Of a stretch of DNA of 52,052 bases, positions 222 to 22,079 are shown one piece after another. The notes below the pieces were generated by a model. That model worked only from the letters and a program-made list of their open reading frames with translations, searched no databases and was not told the DNA's origin. The position numbers and the translations under genes are program-made. Positions within the stretch are counted from its first letter, which is position 1; every line of letters starts with the position of its first letter. Source of the stretch: Oscillospiraceae bacterium (GTDB lineage: Bacteria; Bacillota; Clostridia; Oscillospirales; CAG-272); assembly GCA_015064005.1 (NCBI GenBank), contig SVTA01000002.1:1-52052 (forward strand), read 5' to 3'.

Positions 222-1067
222 TCAATGATTGATCGCCGCAGTCAGTATGGGAAGTGCCTTCTCGAATTTCGCGCCGTACCAATGGCTGTCGTCGTCTGCG
301 GTAGCGCGCATGGCGGCCAGCGTGAAATCCGCCGCAAGGGTGGCGGCCTCCAGCGGTGCTTTGCCCTGCACCAGTGCGCCGGTAAAGGCTGCGGCAAAAA
401 TATCACCGGTGCCATGGCAGCTTTTAGGCAGCCGCTCGTGGAAGTAATAGGAAATTTCCCGATCGCCGCGGCTGAAAACGGCCACGCCCAGCTGCTCCGG
501 CCGGTAGCTCACGCCGGTCAGCACCACGGTTTTCGCACCAAGGGCGAGCAACCGCTCCATCAGATCGCGGATATAGCTCTCGTCGTAGCCCTCGCCCACG
601 TAAGGCGCATCGGTCATCATAGCCGCCTCCGTAATATTGGGCAGCACGATATCCGCCTCGCCGCACAGGCCACCCATGGCGTGCGCATACACCTCGTCAA
701 AGCCAAAATACAGCTTGCCGTGATCCGCCATGGCCGGATCCACGATCTTCACGGCGCCGGGAGCTGCCACCCGCCGGAAGATATCCTTGATCATGTCGAT
801 CTGTCTGGTGCTGCCGAGATATCCGGTGTAGATGGCGTCGAAGGCGAGGCCCTCCTTCACCCAATGATCGACGATGCCGGGAATATCGTCGGTAAGATCC
901 CGCACCGTGAAGCCGCTAAATCCGCCCGTGTGGGTGGAAAGCACCGCTGATGGAAGAATGGCTGTTTCCACACCGCAGGCGGAAATGATGGGCAGCGCCA
1001 CCGTCAGCGAGCATTGTCCAAAGCAGGAAATATCCTGCACCGTTAATACCTTTTTATCCGTTGCCAT
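222..1067 (-). CDS. pdxK: Pyridoxal/pyridoxamine kinase (ribokinase superfamily)
   Basis: The translation MATDKKVLTVQDISCFGQCSLTVALPIISACGVETAILPSAVLSTHTGGF is typical of Firmicute PdxK. The ATG at 1067 is preceded by GGAGGTG. The longer ORF start at 1106 has no RBS. Confidence 0.85.
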   Translation of the reverse strand: MATDKKVLTVQDISCFGQCSLTVALPIISACGVETAILPSAVLSTHTGGFSGFTVRDLTDDIPGIVDHWVKEGLAFDAIYTGYLGSTRQIDMIKDIFRRVAAPGAVKIVDPAMADHGKLYFGFDEVYAHAMGGLCGEADIVLPNITEAAMMTDAPYVGEGYDESYIRDLMERLLALGAKTVVLTGVSYRPEQLGVAVFSRGDREISYYFHERLPKSCHGTGDIFAAAFTGALVQGKAPLEAATLAADFTLAAMRATADDDSHWYGAKFEKALPILTAAINH

Positions 1068-1220
1068 TGTACACCTCCGGGGTTTTGTTTCCTCATTGTA
1101 CCACAAATCTGACCCGAGAAAAATACCCAGAAAAGAACTTTTTTATCATACCAGATGGTGGTTCTAAACTTGTCCTCCGCCGCATAGATTGAACCAAAGA
1201 ACCAACAGGAGGCAAACGGT

Positions 1221-2126
1221 ATGCAAAATGTCATCATCCATCAAGGCTTTCTGCCGGATCTGCTATATCAGCTGCTGCCGGAGCGCCTGCTGGCTTCCAT
1301 TGCCGAGGTGCTGCCGCCTGACGCCACACCGGAGGAGATCCACCTGCGATGCGGGCGCTGCGCTTCCATCACCGTGCGGGGTAAGAGTCTGCGCCTTTCT
1401 GCCGTGTGGACCGGCGCGGAGCTGGAACGGCTGCTGCTGCAGCTTTGTCAGGGCTCGCGCTATGCTCATGAGGAAACCCTGCGCGAGGGATATCTGATGC
1501 TGGAGGGCGGTGTGCGGGTGGGTGTCTGCGGCCGCGCCGCCGTTGTGGACGGCAGAGTAACGGACATCGCGGCGCTGACGGCGCTGGTTTTCCGTATTCC
1601 CTGCGATATCCCCCAAAACGGTATCGATTTTTGCCATTTGCTGCGGTGTCTTCCGCAAGGGAAGGGGCTGCTGATCTACGCACCGCCCGGTGGCGGAAAA
1701 ACCACCGCCCTGCGCTGCGCCGCGGTCAGCCTTGCCGGCGGGGAGCATCCCCTGCGTGTGGCGGTGGTGGATACCCGCAGAGAGCTGCTGCTTCCCAACG
1801 ATCCCTCCCTTTTGGTGGACGTGCTGTCCGCCTATCCCAAGCACGTGGGCATTTCCATTGCCGCACGCACACTGGGAGCGGAGGTCATTCTCACCGACGA
1901 GATCGGAACCAAGGAGGAGGCCGAGGCCATTCTCGGTGCCCAGACCTGCGGCGTGCCGCTGCTGGCCACCGCCCACGGAGCAGAGCTATCGGAGCTTTTG
2001 CGGCGACCCGCTATCCGCTTGCTGCACGAGGCAAGATGCTTTGGCGCTTATGCCGGGCTATCCCGCACCGAGGCGGGGCAAGCACTGGCCGTGACCTCCT
2101 TTGAGGCCGCAGATGCTTTACTGTAA
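1221..2126 (+). CDS. spoIIIAA: Stage III sporulation protein AA (ATPase)
   Basis: Walker A motif APPGGGKTT. It is the first gene of a co-linear AA-AG cluster. RBS AGGAGG lies upstream of the ATG. Confidence 0.9.
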   Translation: MQNVIIHQGFLPDLLYQLLPERLLASIAEVLPPDATPEEIHLRCGRCASITVRGKSLRLSAVWTGAELERLLLQLCQGSRYAHEETLREGYLMLEGGVRVGVCGRAAVVDGRVTDIAALTALVFRIPCDIPQNGIDFCHLLRCLPQGKGLLIYAPPGGGKTTALRCAAVSLAGGEHPLRVAVVDTRRELLLPNDPSLLVDVLSAYPKHVGISIAARTLGAEVILTDEIGTKEEAEAILGAQTCGVPLLATAHGAELSELLRRPAIRLLHEARCFGAYAGLSRTEAGQALAVTSFEAADALL

Positions 2127-9965: not shown

Positions 9966-10448
9966 TCATCTTTCCTTTAAGTTTTCATATACACGCTGCA
10001 GCAGCGCCGTCAGCTGCGCCTCCTCCGCAGGGGTAAAGCCCTCCATGGCACAGCGATCGTTTTCGGTGATCAGATTGAGATGCTCACGGTCAAAAGCACG
10101 GCCCTTTTCGCTCAGTGCTACCAGCATCACACGGCGATCCTTCTGATCCGGCCTGCGGCACACATATCCCTCCGCCTCCATTTTGCGCAGCAGAATACTG
10201 ACGGTGGGGGTGGAGAAGTGGGTTTTTTCCGCCAGCGTGAGCTGACTTGCCTCGCCCAAAACCGCCAGATGTGCCATCAGCACGCGGGCCGCGTGCTGGG
10301 ACATCACGCCGGTCGCCTCATTCCGTCGCACGCGGTAGCGCAGCTGCCTGGCCACATCCATGATCAGGCGAGGCGCCTGCGGCAGGGATTGCAGCTCAAC
10401 ACGCTCCGGCATAGCAGGAGCGGGACCGTTTGGAAGATGTTCCTTCAT
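9966..10448 (-). CDS. MarR family transcriptional regulator
   Basis: Winged-helix segment LTLAEKTHFSTPTVSILLRKMEAEGYVCRRPDQKDRRVMLVALSEKG. The ATG at 10448 has a GGAGG 6 nt upstream. The ATG at 10460 is an alternative start. Confidence 0.85.
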   Translation of the reverse strand: MKEHLPNGPAPAMPERVELQSLPQAPRLIMDVARQLRYRVRRNEATGVMSQHAARVLMAHLAVLGEASQLTLAEKTHFSTPTVSILLRKMEAEGYVCRRPDQKDRRVMLVALSEKGRAFDREHLNLITENDRCAMEGFTPAEEAQLTALLQRVYENLKER

Positions 10449-10594
10449 ATTGGCCTCCATAATAATTTATTAGCAAACTAATTATAGCAGATTCCGGCAG
10501 TTTGTCAAGAGCTTTCTCTTTGATTTTATCCGGATCGCTTTATTTTTTTCGACAGCCGTGTGCCTCGACCGATAAATTGGGGCTTATCGCAATG

Positions 10595-10895
10595 TTCGCA
10601 CAAACTTTTTGTAAAAAGTTTTGATCAAACTTTTTCAAAAGTTTGCGGGTGTGGGCGGTGCCCACAAAAACGCCGTTTCTTTTTGATAACTTTTTCTTTG
10701 CGGCTCACACCTGCAAAGAAAAAGTGGCTAAGAAAACTGAAAGAGCTTGTGGCTACAGCCATTTGGCGTTTGCAAACTCCTTGCCCGCTTTTCTCTTTGA
10801 CACCGGAGGCACAAAGAGAAAAGCTACCAAAAGAGAAATGCCCTATATGGGGCTCTGCCCCATGCCCCGCCGCCTTTTGAAAAAGGCGGGCGAAA
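10595..10895. repeat. Intergenic cluster of at least 6 different short A/T-run hairpins
   Basis: Examples: ctttttctttgc...gcaaagaaaaag (about 10690-10725), cttttctctttg...caaagagaaaag (about 10789-10823), gtgggc-ggt-gcccac, cgccgcctttt-gaa-aaaggcgggcg. Confidence 0.6.
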
Positions 10896-11036
10896 ACTTC
10901 CCGAAAGGGCTTGTGCGAACAAAGCGACAAATCAACATTAAAAAAACAAATCTTGGCAACAGTTGCGTATATTGTTATTGGTGAACGGCGTTTTTTCGGG
11001 CATAGTAATAGCACAGCGAAATTTGGGGGAATTTTT

Positions 11037-12080
11037 ATGATAAAATTGGAAAACAGGGGCAAACGGGTGGCGTTTTTGGCACTTTTGCTCTGCTTTGCCC
11101 TCCTCCTTTCCCTGCCGCTTTCGGCAGTGGCAAGGCGAGAGGAGCGAGAGGTGCTGTTGGTGGGCGGCATCCCGTTTGGGGTGCGCTTTTTTACCGATGG
11201 GATCCTTGTTGTTGGGTACTGCGACGTCACCTGCGGCGGGCGAGCCAAGAATCCCGCGCGGGATGCCGGGCTCCAGCCCGGGGATTGTATTATAGAAGTC
11301 AACGGTCAACGACCGCAAAGCGTGACGGAGCTCTCCGAGGCCATTCACAACGCGGGCGGCACGCCGCTGACGCTGACCGTGCGGCACAAAGGCGAGGACA
11401 AGCAGGTGACCCTCTCACCGGTGGCCTGTGACAAGGATGGCAAATGCCGCACGGGGCTTTGGGTGCGGGATTCCGGCGCCGGCATTGGTACTGTCACCTT
11501 TGTGCGGCAGGAGGATCTCTCCTTCGGTGGGCTCGGACACGGCATTTGTGACGGAGAAAGCGGATGTTTGGTTCCCATGGCGCGGGGCAGCGTGCTGGGC
11601 GCGGAGATCGGCGGTATCAAAAAGGGCGCCGTGGGGGCGCCGGGCGAGCTGAAGGGACATTTTTCCGCAGGCAAAAGCGGCACAGTGCTGCAAAACACCG
11701 AGTGCGGCGTGTTCGGCTATTTCGGGGAGCAACCGACCCTTCCAGCCGGCGCGATGCCCATTGGCTACAGGGAGGAGCTGCGCGACGGCGCAGCGACCCT
11801 GTGGTGCACGCTGGATGACAACGTCACGCGGGAATACGGCATTGAAATTTCGGATATTCACAGAAACGCCACGGGCAACAAATGCTTCACCGTCACCGTC
11901 ACCGATATGGATCTGTTAGAGAAAACCGGCGGCATCGTGCAGGGCATGTCGGGCAGCCCCATCGTGCAGAACGGTAAGCTGGTGGGAGCGGTGACCCACG
12001 TGCTCATCGGAGACCCCACCACGGGGTATGGAATCTTTATTGAGAATATGCTGGAGAACATGGCGCAGGCGCTGGGGTAA
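11037..12080 (+). CDS. spoIVB: SpoIVB peptidase (S55 serine peptidase, PDZ domain)
   Basis: Signal/TM N-terminus, PDZ-like PGDCIIEVNG, and the catalytic-region motif [20 protein letters not shown]. The ATG at 11037 follows GGGGGA. Confidence 0.9.
   Translation: MIKLENRGKRVAFLALLLCFALLLSLPLSAVARREEREVLLVGGIPFGVRFFTDGILVVGYCDVTCGGRAKNPARDAGLQPGDCIIEVNGQRPQSVTELSEAIHNAGGTPLTLTVRHKGEDKQVTLSPVACDKDGKCRTGLWVRDSGAGIGTVTFVRQEDLSFGGLGHGICDGESGCLVPMARGSVLGAEIGGIKKGAVGAPGELKGHFSAGKSGTVLQNTECGVFGYFGEQPTLPAGAMPIGYREELRDGAATLWCTLDDNVTREYGIEISDIHRNATGNKCFTVTVTDMDLLEKTGGIVQGMSGSPIVQNGKLVGAVTHVLIGDPTTGYGIFIENMLENMAQALG
11952..12016 (+). repeat. Left copy of the 65-bp direct repeat (inside the intact spoIVB)
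   Basis: ggcagccccatcgtgcagaacggtaagctggtgggagcggtgacccacgtgctcatcggagaccc. Confidence 0.9.
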
Positions 12081-12150
12081 AGCGGACCGTCGAGGAAGCC
12101 GGTCCCTACAAGTGATGCCACAGGGGCGGGCGAAGTGGACCGCACGCAAA

Positions 12151-12187
12151 AAGGCAATATCATTCCTTCACGGTTTGATATTGCCTT
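12151..12187. terminator. Hairpin between spoIVB and the convergent cassette gene
   Basis: aaggcaatatca ... tgatattgcctt (12-bp stem). Confidence 0.55.
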
Positions 12188-12213
12188 GTGTCATGTTCGA
12201 ATCGTTATCGCAA

Positions 12214-12741
12214 TTATACCTTGAAGTATTTTTTGATCACGGCATCAACATTTCTTTCCTTAACCGAGCCATCATCATATACTTCTCCGGTTTGATATTT
12301 TTGTGTAAAAGAAGCCACATTGCCGCACTTCGCACAGGTACAAGTAAAGTCAACATGCTCTATTCTTATACCTTCAATCTGTTTTCTATCAGAGTTGGGG
12401 TTTGTTTTCTTATCTTTGATTTCAATCTCACCGACCTCCCATTCCACACAGGTCTGATAATCATATCTTGCACCGCATTCCTGGCAAAAATTTCTCCGAA
12501 TTCTCTTCAATTCTCCAGGCACCCACACCGCCAACAAAACAGCTATGGAGATCAAAGCCGCACAAATACCAATAAGAGCATTGCCCAAAAGTAACAGGCT
12601 TCCTACTATGAAAACCGCTGCTACTATTCCTGCAACAATAGCTGCCGAAATCCATACCTTTCTCTTTGAGCGCTTATATGCGCTCATATCAACCTTGATT
12701 TCATTCTTTTTTTCAACAACATCCATTTTCTTTTCCTCCAT
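12214..12741 (-). CDS. Hypothetical two-TM membrane protein with a C-terminal CxxC...CxxC zinc-ribbon domain
   Basis: Hydrophobic stretches VWISAAIVAGIVAAVFIVGSLLLL and ALIGICAALISIAVLLAVWV, then CQECG ... CAKCG. Low-GC codon usage. The internal ATG at 12726 has the better RBS (GGAGG). Confidence 0.7.
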   Translation of the reverse strand: MEEKKMDVVEKKNEIKVDMSAYKRSKRKVWISAAIVAGIVAAVFIVGSLLLLGNALIGICAALISIAVLLAVWVPGELKRIRRNFCQECGARYDYQTCVEWEVGEIEIKDKKTNPNSDRKQIEGIRIEHVDFTCTCAKCGNVASFTQKYQTGEVYDDGSVKERNVDAVIKKYFKV

Positions 12742-12912
12742 TGTGAATAAAATTGTACCAACATAGAATCATTAATGTTGGAGTGCCAATATTGTATCAT
12801 ATTTTTGGGCCGTTGTCAATACTAATAACTTAAATTTTACCTATAAATATCTTCTTTTAAAGTTATTGGTGTTGTATAATCAAGATAAACCAGCATTGCA
12901 AAAGGAGAAAAA

Positions 12913-13239
12913 ATGAATATAGATTACAAACTGATTGGCGAGAGAATCAAAAAAGCTCGCAAATCCAAAGGGCTCACACAGGATATTCTTTCGGAAAAGC
13001 TGAACGTATCCATTGGTTATGTTAGCCAGGTTGAGCGCGGTATAACAAAAATAAGCCTTGATCTGCTTGGCGCAATCTCAAGCATATTAGAGTTTGATAT
13101 TGCAAGTTTTATAACCGAAAGCGCTCCAAATTCAAACGATTATGTGGAGTCCGAGCTTCTCTCCGAAATCCGAAAGCTCGACGGGAAGAAAAAGAAATAT
13201 ATACTTGAGATTATCAAATTAACCAATGATATAATGTAA
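12913..13239 (+). CDS. XRE-family helix-turn-helix transcriptional regulator
   Basis: IGERIKKARKSKGLTQDILSEKLNVSIGYVSQVERG is a canonical HTH_3 motif. RBS AAAGGAG. Confidence 0.9.
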   Translation: MNIDYKLIGERIKKARKSKGLTQDILSEKLNVSIGYVSQVERGITKISLDLLGAISSILEFDIASFITESAPNSNDYVESELLSEIRKLDGKKKKYILEIIKLTNDIM

Positions 13240-13240
13240 A

Positions 13241-13286
13241 AAGGTAATGCTTTTCCTGAAACGGATTGGCATTACCTTTATATTTT
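13241..13286 (+). terminator. Rho-independent terminator of the XRE gene
   Basis: aaggtaatgc ... gcattacctt followed by tatatttt. Confidence 0.6.
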
Positions 13287-13323
13287 CGTTAAAATGCGTT
13301 GTCCTTTATTGACCACACTCCTG

Positions 13324-13457
13324 AGCGGCAGCCCCATCGTGCAGAACGGTAAGCTGGTGGGAGCGGTGACCCACGTGCTCATCGGAGACCCGACCACAGG
13401 CTATGGCATTTTTATCGAGAATATGCTGGCCAATATGGCCGAAGCGGCGGGAAAATA
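13324..13457 (+). pseudogene. spoIVB: Orphaned 3' fragment of spoIVB (encodes ...[44 protein letters not shown])
   Basis: The first 65 nt are identical to 11952-12016. Next come 6 synonymous differences, then a divergent C-terminus. It has no catalytic N-terminal part. Confidence 0.85.
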
Positions 13458-13540
13458 AGCAATCATAACCACCGGCTGCGCCGGGCACTCGCGTGAGCCT
13501 GCCTATCATATTATTCGTGATTCATTGGCTGTAAAAGCAC

Positions 13541-13578
13541 CAAGAACCCGCCCCATGGGGCGGGTTCTTGGCGGTTTT
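13541..13578 (+). terminator. Probable original spoIVB terminator
   Basis: caagaacccgcccc-at-ggggcgggttcttg followed by gcggtttt. Confidence 0.65.
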
Positions 13579-13684
13579 ACGTTTGCACAGGGCGGGTCTT
13601 CAGGGCAGTATAGGAATCCTCGCTGTAGCGAGGTCGGCTGCCGTCCGGTCCCGATTCCACGCATTTCTTTTTTATGATCTCCAC

Positions 13685-14605
13685 CTACGGTGTGCCTTTT
13701 TTCTGCTTTTTACCATACGGCACCGGCAGCTGCGCCACCATAATGGCGGCAAAGATCAGCATCATTCCGATCCATTCCCGGCCGCTTGGAAACGCCCGCA
13801 GGGCTACCATCCCCGCCAGCACGCCAACCACCGATTCCAGACTCAGCACAAGGCAGGCGATAGCACCGGGTAGCCGCTGCTGACCGATGATCTGCAGGGT
13901 ATAGGCAACACCCGTAGAAAGGATGCCGGCGTACAGCACCGTCCACCAGCCCTCCAGCACACCGGAGAGCGTGGGCGCTTCAAAGATGACGGCGAGAACG
14001 GCGGAGAGCACCGCCACGGTGGCAAACTGCACGGTAGAAAGGCGAATGCCATCCACGTCGGCGCCAAACACCTCCACCAGCACCATCTGCACCGCATAAA
14101 AGAGTGAGCAGATGATCAGCTGGGTGTCGGCCACGGTCAGCGCCGCGCCGTTCATGCAGAGCAGCCACAGACCGCCCAACGCCACCAGCACACATACGTA
14201 TACGTGGGGATCGGCCTTCTTTTTGAAGAAAAGCCCCAAAACGGGTACGAAAACGATGTAGAGCGCAGTAATGAAGGCCGCCTTGCCGGGCTCACCCGGG
14301 CTACCGGTGATCCCGAATTGCTGCAGCGCTGAGGCGGCGCAAAGGATGGTTCCACACACCACGCCACAGAGAATCAGCTTTTTCTTGTGCGCGGCGGTGG
14401 AGGGCTGATACACGCCCTGCTTCTTCCGCACGCGGTCCCTGATGAGGAATACGGGTAGCAGCGCCGCCACGCCCACAAAGGAGCGCAGCGCAAGATAGGT
14501 AAAGGGGGGAATGGTTCTGGCGCCCACATCCTGCGCGATGAAGGTCGTGCCCCAAAATAAAGCGGCAAGCAGGCAACAGAGGAAGCCGCTGACTTTTCGA
14601 TTCAT
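13685..14605 (-). CDS. DMT/EamA family transporter
   Basis: Ten-TM profile. The N-terminus LLAALFWGTTFIAQDVG is typical of EamA domains. Confidence 0.85.
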   Translation of the reverse strand: MNRKVSGFLCCLLAALFWGTTFIAQDVGARTIPPFTYLALRSFVGVAALLPVFLIRDRVRKKQGVYQPSTAAHKKKLILCGVVCGTILCAASALQQFGITGSPGEPGKAAFITALYIVFVPVLGLFFKKKADPHVYVCVLVALGGLWLLCMNGAALTVADTQLIICSLFYAVQMVLVEVFGADVDGIRLSTVQFATVAVLSAVLAVIFEAPTLSGVLEGWWTVLYAGILSTGVAYTLQIIGQQRLPGAIACLVLSLESVVGVLAGMVALRAFPSGREWIGMMLIFAAIMVAQLPVPYGKKQKKGTP

Positions 14606-14663
14606 CTTAAAAGCTCACTTTCTAACCGATGTTTTATCATTGTAGCATGTCAACAGCACCGTG

Positions 14664-15881
14664 TCAAGGCTTGCGGCGGTTTTGGATGCCGATCTCCTCG
14701 TTCTCATAGCACCCCAGGCGGATACTGTCCCGCCCGAAGCGGCGGCGCAGCTCGTACAGCGTGCTTTCCACGCCCTCCTGCCGCTCGGAGGGGGCGGCAT
14801 CGGCAAACATATCCAGCTGCTCCTCCACCTCGCCGGCCGCAACCAGACCTCCCGCCGTAATCGTAATGCTGCGAATGGCGTTGCCGTAGCCGTGGGCGAT
14901 CTTGATCAGCGCCATGGCGTTATCGATCAGATCCTGCCGCAGCCAAGTGGCGCGCTTCAGGGTGATTTGCCGCTGAACGGTGCGGAAATCCGGGGTTTTC
15001 ACCTGCACCTGCACCACGGTGCATTTCATATCCTCATCCCGCAGGCGGGCGGCTACAGAATCTGAAAGCGCCATCACGCCCGCACGAATCTCGGCCTCAC
15101 CCACCACGTCCCGCTTAAAGGTCATACCGTTGCCCACGGATTTGGGCGCGGGGCGGTCGTGATACGCCCGCACCGGCTCGTTATCAAGGCCATTGGCGTA
15201 ACGCCAAAGTGTTTCGCCCGCCTCGCCCAGCTCCCTTGCCAGCAGCAGACGGTCAGCAGCAGCCAGATCGCCAATGGTCAAAATACCGAAGCGTCGCAGC
15301 GCCTCGGTGGTGCGCTTTCCGGCGAAAAGCAGGTCCGAAACCGGCAAAGGGTAGGCAACGGTGCGGAAATTCGACCGATCGATGACCGTGGTGGCATCCG
15401 GCTTCTTGTAATCGCTGCCCAGCTTGGCAAACACACGGCAAAAGCTGACGCCCACCGAGATCGTAATACCGATCTCCTGCCGCACGCGGGCGCGAATGGT
15501 ATCTGCCAGCTCTCGCGGTGTCATGGGAAACAGGTGCATACTGCCCGTCACATCCAAAAAGGACTCGTCGATGCCAAAGGGGTCTACAAGGTCGGTATAA
15601 TCCAGATAAATGGCATTGACCCGACGGGAGATCTCGTGATATCTCCCGTGGTGCGGCGCCACCAGCCGGAGCGCGGGGCACTTTTCCTTTGCCTCGCGAA
15701 TGGTCTCCGCCGTACGGATGCCATAGGCCTTGGCCAGCTCGTTTTTGGCAAGAATGATGCCGTGTCGGTTCTCGGGATCGCCGGCAACGGCCATGGGCAC
15801 GCCCGCAAGGCTGGGGTCAAGCAGCGTTTCCACCGAGGCATAAAAGCCATTGCAATCGCAATGCAGGATCACACGGTCCAT
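14664..15881 (-). CDS. dinB: DNA polymerase IV (Y-family)
   Basis: ILHCDCNGFYASVE ... PMAVAGDPENRHGIILAKNELAKAYGI is a canonical DinB N-terminus. Confidence 0.9.
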   Translation of the reverse strand: MDRVILHCDCNGFYASVETLLDPSLAGVPMAVAGDPENRHGIILAKNELAKAYGIRTAETIREAKEKCPALRLVAPHHGRYHEISRRVNAIYLDYTDLVDPFGIDESFLDVTGSMHLFPMTPRELADTIRARVRQEIGITISVGVSFCRVFAKLGSDYKKPDATTVIDRSNFRTVAYPLPVSDLLFAGKRTTEALRRFGILTIGDLAAADRLLLARELGEAGETLWRYANGLDNEPVRAYHDRPAPKSVGNGMTFKRDVVGEAEIRAGVMALSDSVAARLRDEDMKCTVVQVQVKTPDFRTVQRQITLKRATWLRQDLIDNAMALIKIAHGYGNAIRSITITAGGLVAAGEVEEQLDMFADAAPSERQEGVESTLYELRRRFGRDSIRLGCYENEEIGIQNRRKP

Positions 15882-15921
15882 AGGCGGCTCCTTTCTGTAT
15901 GATTTGAAATGGTGCAGCGTG

Positions 15922-16653
15922 TCACATCAGCGACAGCAAAAACGCGGTGTCGGCGGGCAGCCCCGTACCCACGCCAAAGGGCGTACCCTTTGCGGCATAA
16001 CGGCGCAGCTCAAAGCGCTCGGCGCCGAGATAAGCTGCCAAACGGGGGGCGAAATCGACGTTTCCCAGCCATTCTGTAAAGAGGATTTTGTCGCCCTCTC
16101 TACGGTAGAGCGCGACGCATTCGTCGGGCAGTGCCAGTGCGCCGTCACTGCACAGCGACAGAAAAGCCTCATCCGGCGCGACAAAGGGCTCGGTCAGATA
16201 GCGCCGGCGGCAGGCAAGATACCTCTCTGCCGTCAGCGCCTGCGGCAAGGTGGGCAAGGACGCCGCTTCCGCTCGCCCCACCTCAGTGACGACGGGCGAC
16301 AGCGGCAAGAGCCCTGCCTTCTCATAAAACGCAAACAGCGACGGTGTGCGCGGGTGCAAAAATACGGGGAAACCCCGCTTCACCTCGTCCTCGATCAGCC
16401 CCTTCGCCAGTCCCTGCCCACGGTAGGCAGGATCGGTGGCAATGCCAAAGAGATAGCGGGCCGGAATGGTTCCCCGCTCGGTTTGCACGGCATACGGTAT
16501 AGAAAACAGCATGGAGGCCACTCGCCCACCATCACCCACCACGCGAAGATGGCGGGGAAAATATCGGGCAAAGAGCCCCTCTACCAGCGTAGGCTGCAGC
16601 TGGGGCAGCGCCGTTTCCAGCAGATGGCGACTTTCTGTGTACAGATCCTTCAT
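15922..16653 (-). CDS. GNAT family N-acetyltransferase
   Basis: Motif A-like IATDPAYRGQGLAKGLI. Confidence 0.7.
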   Translation of the reverse strand: MKDLYTESRHLLETALPQLQPTLVEGLFARYFPRHLRVVGDGGRVASMLFSIPYAVQTERGTIPARYLFGIATDPAYRGQGLAKGLIEDEVKRGFPVFLHPRTPSLFAFYEKAGLLPLSPVVTEVGRAEAASLPTLPQALTAERYLACRRRYLTEPFVAPDEAFLSLCSDGALALPDECVALYRREGDKILFTEWLGNVDFAPRLAAYLGAERFELRRYAAKGTPFGVGTGLPADTAFLLSLM

Positions 16654-16695
16654 GCTTTCACCTCATTTCCACATCAGTATAACCTATTTTTCAGA

Positions 16696-16724
16696 TTTCG
16701 TCAAGCCCATTCCCCTTGACGAAA
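16696..16724. promoter_or_regulatory. 10-bp perfect inverted repeat overlapping a candidate -35 in a divergent promoter region
   Basis: tttcgtcaag-cccattccc-cttgacgaaa. TTGACG, then 17 nt, then TAATAT lies downstream. Confidence 0.35.
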
Positions 16725-16817
16725 CGGTATTTTTGTGGTAATATAATGGTATATAAGGCGCACTTCTGCGGCAATTTGTCCCGCTGCCGTCCGCCGCAAC
16801 CCGAAAGGAACAAAACC

Positions 16818-22004: not shown

Positions 22005-22079
22005 TGGAGCTGGTGGTGAGATTTGAACTCACGACCTGCTGATTACGAATCAGCTGCACTGCCCCTGTGCTACACCAGC
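22005..22079 (-). tRNA. tRNA-Thr (anticodon CGU), CCA encoded
   Basis: Reverse complement GCTGGTGTAGCACAGGGGCAGTGCAGCTGATTCGTAATCAGCAGGTCGTGAGTTCAAATCTCACCACCAGCTCCA. The acceptor stem is GCTGGTG/CACCAGC, the anticodon loop is TTCGTAA, and the T-loop is GTTCAAATC. Confidence 0.9.

Follow-up and report, generated by a model that had tools for sequence, protein, structure and literature searches.

The 52,052-nt stretch of Oscillospiraceae DNA examined here (contig SVTA01000002.1; hereafter the window, in whose numbering all coordinates are given) carries a short gene cassette inserted at the 3' end of the sporulation gene spoIVB. Loci or contigs with which it was compared bear L-numbers, and proteins P-numbers. 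The gene itself is intact: at 11037-12080 on the plus strand it encodes 347 residues, with a full-length Peptidase_S55 domain (7.8e-74) and PDZ domains, and its coding sequence is uninterrupted despite the insertion. The cassette is bracketed by a direct repeat, in which positions 11952-12016 recur without a mismatch at 13327-13391; this 65-nt identity is part of an ungapped alignment of 125 nt at 89% identity, by far the longest repeat of the region. Past the identical block the two copies encode the same 14-residue peptide with exactly six synonymous differences and then part, the first ending in ENMAQALG* (stop codon 12078-12080) and the second in ANMAEAAGK* (stop codon 13456-13458). A sequence-only reading of this DNA had reported the perfect repeat, the synonymous divergence and the split C-termini, all of which the alignment reproduces.

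Several features, all on the plus strand, delimit the insertion. The first copy of the 65-nt core, which we call attL (11952-12016), codes for 21 residues and directly follows TCG (11949-11951), the Ser codon of the catalytic motif. It continues into a replacement spoIVB 3' end of what we term the A type (12017-12080; ...ENMAQALG*), whose GC content at third codon positions (GC3) is 0.33. The second copy, attR (13327-13391), is defined by the repeat alignment and by the allele pattern described below, and continues into a B-type 3' end (13392-13458; ...ANMAEAAGK*). Together they form a 54-aa open reading frame (ORF) that matches only positions 175-210, the last 36, of the Peptidase_S55 profile, in keeping with the earlier view of this copy as an orphaned spoIVB end. 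It is followed by the original host spoIVB terminator at 13531-13580, a 25-nt inverted repeat (dG -39.5 kcal/mol, z -6.8) encompassing the hairpin that had been placed at 13541-13578. The insert measures 1,375 bp, counted as 12017-13391 or, equivalently, 11952-13326. Its AT-richness, also remarked on earlier, is clear: GC content is 0.28-0.44 across about 12150-13300, where all remaining 1-kb bins of the window have 0.55-0.63, and GC3 is 0.39 and 0.42 in the two cassette genes against 0.68-0.77 in flanking host genes, so that both composition and codon statistics set the insert apart from its flanks. The present spoIVB is a hybrid of host sequence up to the exchange point and an imported 3' end beyond it. 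Independent JGI assemblies from two samples (L001/L079; L080) reproduce the arrangement at 99.99-100% identity, so that it is no assembly artefact of this record; several short metagenome contigs carry it as well.

Between the repeats lie two divergent genes with their own signals; none of the proteins encoded there is an integrase or recombinase, as had been noted before. The left end is marked by a conserved terminator hairpin, AAGGCAATATCA...TGATATTGCCTT (12151-12187, plus strand; dG -22.9 kcal/mol, z -5.1), which also follows the element-borne spoIVB 3' ends of L011, L020, L035, L037, L042, L049, L053, L054, L065, L072 and L074. The first cargo gene (12214-12741, minus strand) encodes 175 aa, or 170 aa from the ATG at 12726. 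A confident AlphaFold2 model of its product (pLDDT 82) comprises two long transmembrane helices and a C-terminal zinc-ribbon beta domain with four cysteines, CxxC...CxxC. Neither Pfam nor PHROG matched this product, and PADLOC gave no more than a weak match to SLATT (E 3e-4); homologues of the protein form only 14 clusters, all unnamed, and its model found no fold match in PDB or BFVD. A sigma-70-like promoter predicted for this gene by consensus match only (12791-12819, minus strand; TTGACA-17-TACAAT with an upstream TG, 11/12 matches) sits in the AT-rich divergent intergenic region 12742-12912. The second cargo gene (12913-13239, plus strand) encodes a 108-aa XRE-family helix-turn-helix regulator (HTH_3, 5.7e-12) that also matches phage repressor PHROGs, and ends in a terminator hairpin of its own (13237-13282, plus strand; dG -22.4 kcal/mol, z -5.2). 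In assembly L080, otherwise 99.99% identical, a 1-nt indel shortens this regulator to 102 aa (L080 7478-7786, equivalent to window 12913-13239). The conserved right end of the cassette (13283-13326, plus strand) consists of the A/T-rich TTTTCGTTAAAATGCG, the 25-nt motif TTGTCCTTTATTGACCACACTCCTG (13299-13323) and an element-derived Ser codon, AGC. A search with Rfam gave sub-threshold chance matches on terminators only. The XRE repressor probably controls the membrane zinc-ribbon protein. Given the Phd/Doc and AAA_21/DUF4417 cargo of sister cassettes described below, we would guess that the pair forms an addiction or defence-type module, with a membrane effector under repressor control.

Uninterrupted relatives of the locus reveal which of the two 3' ends is original. 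The closest species-level relative found, a roe-deer caecum metagenome-assembled genome (MAG) with 88% nucleotide identity (L010), has a spoIVB that runs without interruption to ...ANMAEAAGK*; terminator, EamA gene and DinB gene then follow as in the window, collinear with its positions 13327-16756. P0008, from the 90%-identity cluster of the window protein, is identical to the latter over about 338 residues and has the B-type tail (this B-type version of the window SpoIVB is represented by P0008/P0005). The contig of P0008, L084, joins window 10112-12016 to 13392-13987 at 100% identity and is a precise empty site; it comes from sample ERZ27248436, which also yielded L008, a contig with the cassette. 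Two 95%-identity strains (L085, L086) have an empty site too. The sequence-only reading had predicted such sites, and all four loci run into ...ANMAEAAGK* and the terminator with the 1,375 bp missing. As all empty sites end in ANMAEAAGK, the orphan is the ancestral 3' end and the ENMAQALG end was imported; the latter, missing from L010, L084, L085 and L086, is present in L009.

Contig L009 (JGI 3300022660) runs from the right end of the cassette (to 13326) through the core into the A-type tail, with the A-type base at all discriminating positions. Its junction is the one expected of an excised circle or a tandem copy. All four junction types of an integration reaction have therefore a counterpart: attB (...CATG TCG, core, B tail) in the empty sites L085, L086 and L084, the last of the same strain as the window; an attP-like junction (motif, AGC, core, A tail) in L009; and attL (...CATG TCG, core, A tail) together with attR (motif, AGC, core, B tail) in the window, L001 and L080. 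From the distribution of the TCG and AGC alleles and of the A and B tails it follows that a single reciprocal exchange within the 65-nt core gave rise to the arrangement in the window. Both the insertion and its polymorphic presence or absence are firmly established.

Two further observations concern the flanks. At window 13734, inside the EamA gene (minus strand, 13685-14605) at its 3' end, two metagenome contigs that match perfectly up to that point continue into unrelated sequence (L004 1375-1479, L006 925-1349), which marks a second strain-level breakpoint about 150 nt past the spoIVB terminator. EamA genes are among the commonest cassette cargo (6/84 proteins scanned), and the EamA neighbour in the window may itself be old cargo. 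Upstream of spoIVB, 570 nt at 10460-11037 are AT-rich (GC about 0.40-0.50) and contain many nested inverted repeats (AAGTTTTGATCAAACTTTTTCAAAAGTTTGCGGG among them); gene prediction puts a 111-aa ORF in this region, and L085/L086 show indels and an inverted match to 10584-10727.

The window cassette is one of many. A SpoIVB scan limited to one genome per species returned 31 loci, all from animal-gut Clostridia/Oscillospiraceae MAGs. Five loci, with L011, L020, L035 (twice) and L037 counted among them, combine an intact spoIVB with one or two orphan 3' ends, and the orphan ends all start at residue 304. Orphans without an intact gene occur in L039 and L040, and the contigs of L036 and L038 break at residue 304. 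Duplicated 3' ends from the same residue, with unrelated cargo, were also found in L061, L065, L069, L109, L120 and L121. Related ruminant-gut and human-gut Clostridia carry one to three tandem cassettes after spoIVB, with inserts of 0.8-5.3 kb, and long contigs place these arrays in ordinary chromosomal contexts. The grammar of the unit is constant: a spoIVB 3' end, a terminator or palindrome, cargo, the right-end motif, and the next spoIVB 3' end, with all cassettes of the arrays in the same orientation. The cargo itself is diverse, and across the family includes AraC-regulated sugar genes, glycyl-radical enzymes, EamA transporters and Phd/Doc pairs. There is a Phd/Doc toxin-antitoxin pair in L011 and L040; an AraC regulator with a glycyl-radical enzyme and its activase in L020 and L065; two successive sugar-utilisation cassettes in L035; a single 241-aa gene in L120; and a LysR regulator with an aminotransferase in L121. 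The array of L109 leads from spoIVB to an AAA_21/DUF4417/CPCC cassette, a BspA-LRR cassette and Fic/Phd.

Searched against 5.8 billion proteins, the 54-aa orphan ORF gave 3,470 matches, the best 120 of which are all orphan ORFs of 47-95 aa; all 14 orphan ORFs read among these best 120 have N-termini encoded by the motif (such as CCPYLTTLVSGSPIIQNGK). The exact 65-nt core had no match in viral and metagenome collections other than those that hold L001-L009. The cassette of L037 couples a regulator 86% identical to that of the window with a different membrane zinc-ribbon protein, and a homologous small cassette adjoins the motif in L075, again in a distant host. The cassette moves horizontally, as the L037 regulator is 86% identical while the host SpoIVB proteins are only 62% identical, and as cargo GC3 (0.39-0.42) departs from that of the host genes (0.68-0.77). 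We are confident that the window cassette belongs to a large conserved family at the catalytic-serine codon of spoIVB.

Some members of this family have undergone further rearrangement. Orphan spoIVB copies are interrupted at various positions, each time after TT, by a second family of small repeats, which start with ATACTCCTT..., are GC-rich with hairpins inside and measure about 95-150 nt (L041 3691-3843; L061 3122-3216; L067 2266-2360; L035 18069-18131; L066 1386-1412). This family looks like a separate insertion, similar to miniature inverted-repeat or palindrome-associated transposable elements, that decays the orphans. In L111, a variant of the L109 array, a 309-aa tyrosine recombinase (Phage_int_SAM_3 and Phage_integrase) and a 171-aa ORF truncate the BspA-LRR cassette gene (926-1855, minus strand); here a different mobile element landed inside the cassette. 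Locus L119 has a motif-plus-orphan junction at 10001-10210 with no intact spoIVB within 10 kb upstream, where an ATP synthase operon lies, and a second, degenerate junction 4.8 kb downstream of the first, at 14833; arrays may either be very long or become relocated.

The most diagnostic feature of the family is a conserved sequence foreign to spoIVB, located in the window at 13299-13323, rather than the 65-nt identity; the sequence-only reading had not mentioned it. This motif of about 30 nt, TTGTCCYTNNTTGAMCACACTCSTG, closes each cassette and is joined to the codon for the catalytic serine motif (SGSPI). It precedes every orphan in the relatives, ending exactly at the Ser codon of GMSGSPI. 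The window has a single match, with 0 expected by chance, and in the fetched loci the motif occurs only beside orphan copies. A motif scan of metagenomes recovered 38 contigs, and in 33 of these the motif continues in frame into SGSPI. Viral contigs gave no motif match, and a relaxed junction pattern matched only the contig of L093, described below. Information content was computed from 16 junctions found by protein search only, a set therefore unbiased with respect to the motif. Over -30 to -1 each position carries 1.3-2.0 bits; the value drops below 0.5 bits further upstream and is 0.2-0.8 bits at synonymous sites of the coding sequence next to the motif, which is thus under constraint.

In many loci the motif is also one arm of a palindrome of about 47 bp just past the spoIVB stop codon, such as TTGTCCCTATTTGAACACACTC-CAC-GAGTGAGTCATATAGGGACAA in L035 (dG -27.4 kcal/mol, z -6.6). 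Full palindromes, made of the motif and its inverted copy, directly follow spoIVB stop codons in L054 (829-875), L077 (1349-1392) and L035 (10963-11007), and are often trailed by further copies of TTGTCCYTAT; they may act as terminators or as whole, symmetric att sites, or the half-site may derive from them. The attP of serine integrases is a pseudo-palindrome of about 50 bp, with half-sites of about 25 bp around a central dinucleotide (PMC3783163). Since the 25-nt length of the motif and the palindromes of about 47 bp match this layout, and since the motif adjoins recombinase operons, we propose that it is a P-type half-site bound by a recombinase. The attP-like junction of the cassette itself combines this conserved 25-nt half with spoIVB sequence as the second half, and has no inverted motif copy.

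Serine recombinases come into view in larger elements. A tblastn search of phage records with the SpoIVB C-terminus found one orphan-only match, the human faecal virome record MT836038.1 (L087), in which three large serine recombinases in tandem (472, 568 and 528 aa; domains Resolvase, Recombinase and Zn_ribbon_recom) are followed 17 nt downstream by a diverged motif, TTGTCCCATATTGACATCAACCGTG joined to AGCGGCAGCCCC. The other 'phage' records, L088-L090, have an intact spoIVB and proved to be ordinary spoIVB-spo0A loci, and the plasmid matches are ordinary spoIVB genes. The same element and junction are present in L093, a 31.8-kb IMG/VR contig. Homologues of the att-proximal recombinase form a large family. 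In L123/L124 (a Candidatus Ventricola MAG and a Logan contig) a triple-recombinase operon is followed by TTGTCTCTATGGGAAAACGCTCATG joined to AGCGGAAGCCCGATC..., an orphan SpoIVB end, and then by spo0A; its third large serine recombinase is 52% identical to that of L087/L093. In both cases the operon lies 17-200 nt upstream of a motif-SGSPI junction and the orphan spoIVB 3' end beside it starts at the same codon as in the cassettes, so that the larger recombinase-bearing elements anticipated by the sequence-only reading do exist at this site. A 56% relative, L122, has TTGTCCCATATTGACATCACTCCTG at the far end of its own cargo. There, at 14862-14914, a motif copy is followed by GCTGGTGGTTCCGGGAACGGACGG instead of spoIVB sequence, and the contig ends 27 nt later; the site may be a true attP or lie in another target gene. 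In L087/L093, L122 and L123/L124 the motif stands near triple operons, and so accompanies this recombinase family in three lineages. Serine-integrase triplets are known as integration modules of ICEs (integrative and conjugative elements), which insert within genes (PMC4701971).

Large serine recombinases next to such an att site were found only in these three lineages. None is encoded by the window cassette, which is therefore a non-autonomous dependant at most. Among the 84 cargo proteins scanned, no recombinase was seen in the 25 most frequent families listed, nor in ten unannotated ORFs checked singly, and none lies within 10 kb of the arrays in L109, L120 and L121. The sequence-only reading had left the choice between a non-autonomous element and a decayed remnant; the former is the right description, and no decay debris was seen.

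With moderate confidence, we favour the view that the window holds a 1,375-bp non-autonomous integrative gene cassette, a member of the family described above, that is served in trans by a heteromeric trio of serine recombinases. The unit would consist of a replacement spoIVB 3' end, a terminator, cargo, and a right-end motif of about 30 nt acting as a P-type half-site. One reciprocal exchange between the chromosomal attB (...GGGCATG TCG, core, B tail) and a circular cassette (motif, AGC, core, A tail) would supply spoIVB with its last 43 or so codons and a terminator, keeping the gene intact and leaving the original 3' end as an orphan. The family builds tandem arrays at the spoIVB site of sporulating gut Clostridia. 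The three different large serine recombinases would be encoded by autonomous relatives and act in trans as a heteromeric set, the cassette standing to the autonomous element as a cis-mobilisable element (CIME) stands to an ICE, or a ccr-less staphylococcal cassette chromosome (SCC) cassette to SCCmec. Mobilisation in trans by the triple recombinase is the best-supported mechanism, and we hold it to be reasonably probable. We infer that the recombinases catalyse the exchange and are present in this genome or population, and likewise the exact point of strand crossing.

More tentatively, the spoIVB 3' end could be a dedicated gene-cassette platform in sporulating gut Clostridia, with a logic like that of integrons or SCC. 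The recombinase trio would recognise an asymmetric site composed of the motif half-site and the catalytic-serine coding region, host spoIVB sequence serving as the second half-site of the element. Each integration would then restore an attB-like site at the gene and attP-like sites at the cassette boundaries, the reaction would be freely reversible without a directionality factor, and new cassettes would stack on the gene-proximal side.

A number of points weigh against mobilisation by the recombinase trio. The 52-kb window encodes no recombinase of any kind, and neither the window nor any cassette-bearing locus has a homologue of the three enzymes; on the 31.8-kb viral contig, a 20-kb upstream walk reached the contig end before the left junction of the autonomous element. 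The exchange point is a further difficulty: junctions all begin at the same codon, and the TCG (attB, attL) and AGC (attR, attP) alleles map the last exchange inside the 65-nt identity, whereas the geometry of the palindromes suggests a crossover at their centre, at the TG before the Ser codon. Formally, the junction of motif and core is a P+B' hybrid of the attR type, and a canonical single serine integrase does not recombine such sites without a directionality factor (PMC3783163); the scheme would thus need, speculatively, a non-canonical and possibly heteromeric site recognition. Finally, L084 and L009 are single contigs each, and reciprocal assembly chimeras across the 65-nt repeat would look alike. 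Against a chimera, L084 was assembled at k=141 and empty sites are independently present in other strains; the end of L009, exactly 126 nt beyond the last base specific to the cassette, is where one would expect a genuine 127-mer path to finish.

An exchange inside 65 nt of identity is equally RecA-like, and the excision that gave L084 may have been homologous. A purely RecA-dependent process, in which a circle, or a linear fragment between two spoIVB 3' segments, exchanges through the similar segments of about 125 nt, would account for the position of the last exchange away from any fixed dinucleotide beside the motif and for the lack of a recombinase in cis. The motif would then be a passenger of a single ancestral junction, for instance one half of the palindromic terminator found after spoIVB in many genomes, whose left arm it indeed forms. 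The longest identity tract between gene and orphan also varies, lying on the left in the window, on the right in L037, and reaching only 14-17 nt in L035 and L020; this fits homologous exchange and is consistent with later gene conversion, yet tracts of 14-17 nt are a poor RecA substrate. Nor does RecA explain why some 30 non-coding nucleotides are kept like non-synonymous positions among hosts with unrelated cargo and SpoIVB proteins of 43-70% identity, why every junction is found at one and the same codon, or why the motif stands beside triple serine-recombinase operons in three lineages. We consider this explanation unlikely. Still less likely is an immobile remnant, a large triple-recombinase element shrunk by internal deletion to 1.3 kb, with the empty sites as never-occupied ancestral alleles and L009 as a mis-assembly. 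Decay is the standard route to CIMEs (PMC5704250), the circle or tandem junction rests on the one contig L009, and the regulator gene is frameshifted in L080. However, more than 40 cassettes have no trace of a recombinase, phage or conjugation gene beside the motif, at which every deletion would have had to end; homologous small cassettes occupy the same site in the distant hosts L037 and L075; the flanks in L084 are 100% identical and come from the same sample as a cassette contig; and the end of L009 would fit a genuine assembly path. An assembly or duplication artefact of this record has nothing in its favour beyond the presence of a repeat, and its probability is practically nil: it is already refuted by the independent assemblies and short contigs, and the gene content is coherent, with its own promoters and terminators.

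Accretion of cassettes in the manner of SCC or CIMEs is known; the target spoIVB and the site signature are unreported, and no paper turned up in full-text literature searches that connects spoIVB with an integrase, an attB or any intervening element. CIMEs are bounded by attL and attR and have no integration or transfer genes; they derive by decay from ICEs or from integrative and mobilisable elements, which accrete in tandem at the 3' ends of conserved genes, as in the Streptococcus ICESt1/ICESt3 family, and are mobilised in cis once accreted with an ICE (PMC5704250). The window cassette likewise keeps attL and attR and carries two cargo genes, neither a recombinase nor a transfer gene; the 3' end of a conserved gene is restored, and tandem arrays share internal att sites. 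In contrast, described CIMEs use tyrosine integrases and repeats of tens of bp, whereas the enzymes linked here are three serine recombinases and the restored segment is about 130 nt of coding sequence. CIMEs are also seen as decay products, whereas the spoIVB units look minimal; no decay debris was seen in the cassettes, and the window has no ICE next to its cassette. At rlmH (orfX), composite islands include ccr-less pseudo-SCC elements and the arginine catabolic mobile element beside SCC/SCCmec; many such cassettes have no recombinase gene and depend on that of a neighbour (PMC7029136). The spoIVB cassettes share with SCC the large serine recombinases, an intact conserved target gene, direct repeats that demarcate cassettes, recombinase-less cassettes, diverse cargo, and a composite architecture in L035, L109 and L065. 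They differ in target (spoIVB rather than rlmH), in repeat length (about 125 rather than about 18 nt), in their anaerobic spore-forming hosts, and, compared by description, in having three recombinases in place of CcrAB or CcrC. The cassette seems to work like a CIME, and even more like a ccr-less SCC cassette; given the differences in target, recombinase number and type, repeat length and host range, it would be a member of neither family. ICEs of the Tn5252/Tn1549 type in Streptococcus have a serine-integrase triplet and insert within mutT, traG or hsdM, disrupting these genes (PMC4701971). They too place a three-gene serine recombinase module at the element extremity beside an att site, but spoIVB is no reported target, and neither a replacement gene end nor recombinase-less arrays are described for them (PMC4701971).

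Other classes of elements were considered and rejected. With integrons the cassettes share one-directional arrays of small cargo, a conserved, partly palindromic end site and an enzyme that is not in the cassette. They differ in carrying their own promoters and regulators and in a repeat that is a gene fragment rather than an attC, and in the window, L001, L109, L120 and L121 the arrays are flanked by neither an IntI tyrosine recombinase nor an attI. Elements with serine recombinases are known in sporulation genes, namely skin in sigK with SpoIVCA and SP-beta in spsM with SprA; these split their target, and excision in the mother cell is needed to rebuild the gene. In Bacillus, spoIVB is a forespore-expressed gene. 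The parallel drawn earlier with intervening elements holds as far as a sporulation gene is targeted and serine recombinases are linked to the site, but spoIVB is never split and developmental excision is neither needed nor implied; a skin-like element is ruled out in the window by the complete 347-aa ORF. A tRNA-type island is ruled out by the position of the only tRNA of the window, at 22005, and an insertion sequence or transposon with inverted terminal repeats by the lack of an inverted motif copy in the window.

These results point to spoIVB as a hotspot of gene flux, so far unreported, among the uncultured spore-forming anaerobes of ruminant and human guts. With the simple signature made of the motif and the SGSPI codons, metagenomes can be mined for cassettes and the cargo they carry. 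Little is understood of triple serine recombinases, and the system offers a candidate new set of attachment sites and recombinases, with unusually well defined half-sites, that could become a genome-engineering tool. Should the platform reading be true, thousands of small metabolic, transporter, toxin-antitoxin and defence cassettes would circulate via spoIVB. The family also shows in nature how an element can take the best-conserved stretch of an essential developmental gene, here the catalytic-serine codons of SpoIVB, as its target and yet not pay for it with an inactivated gene.

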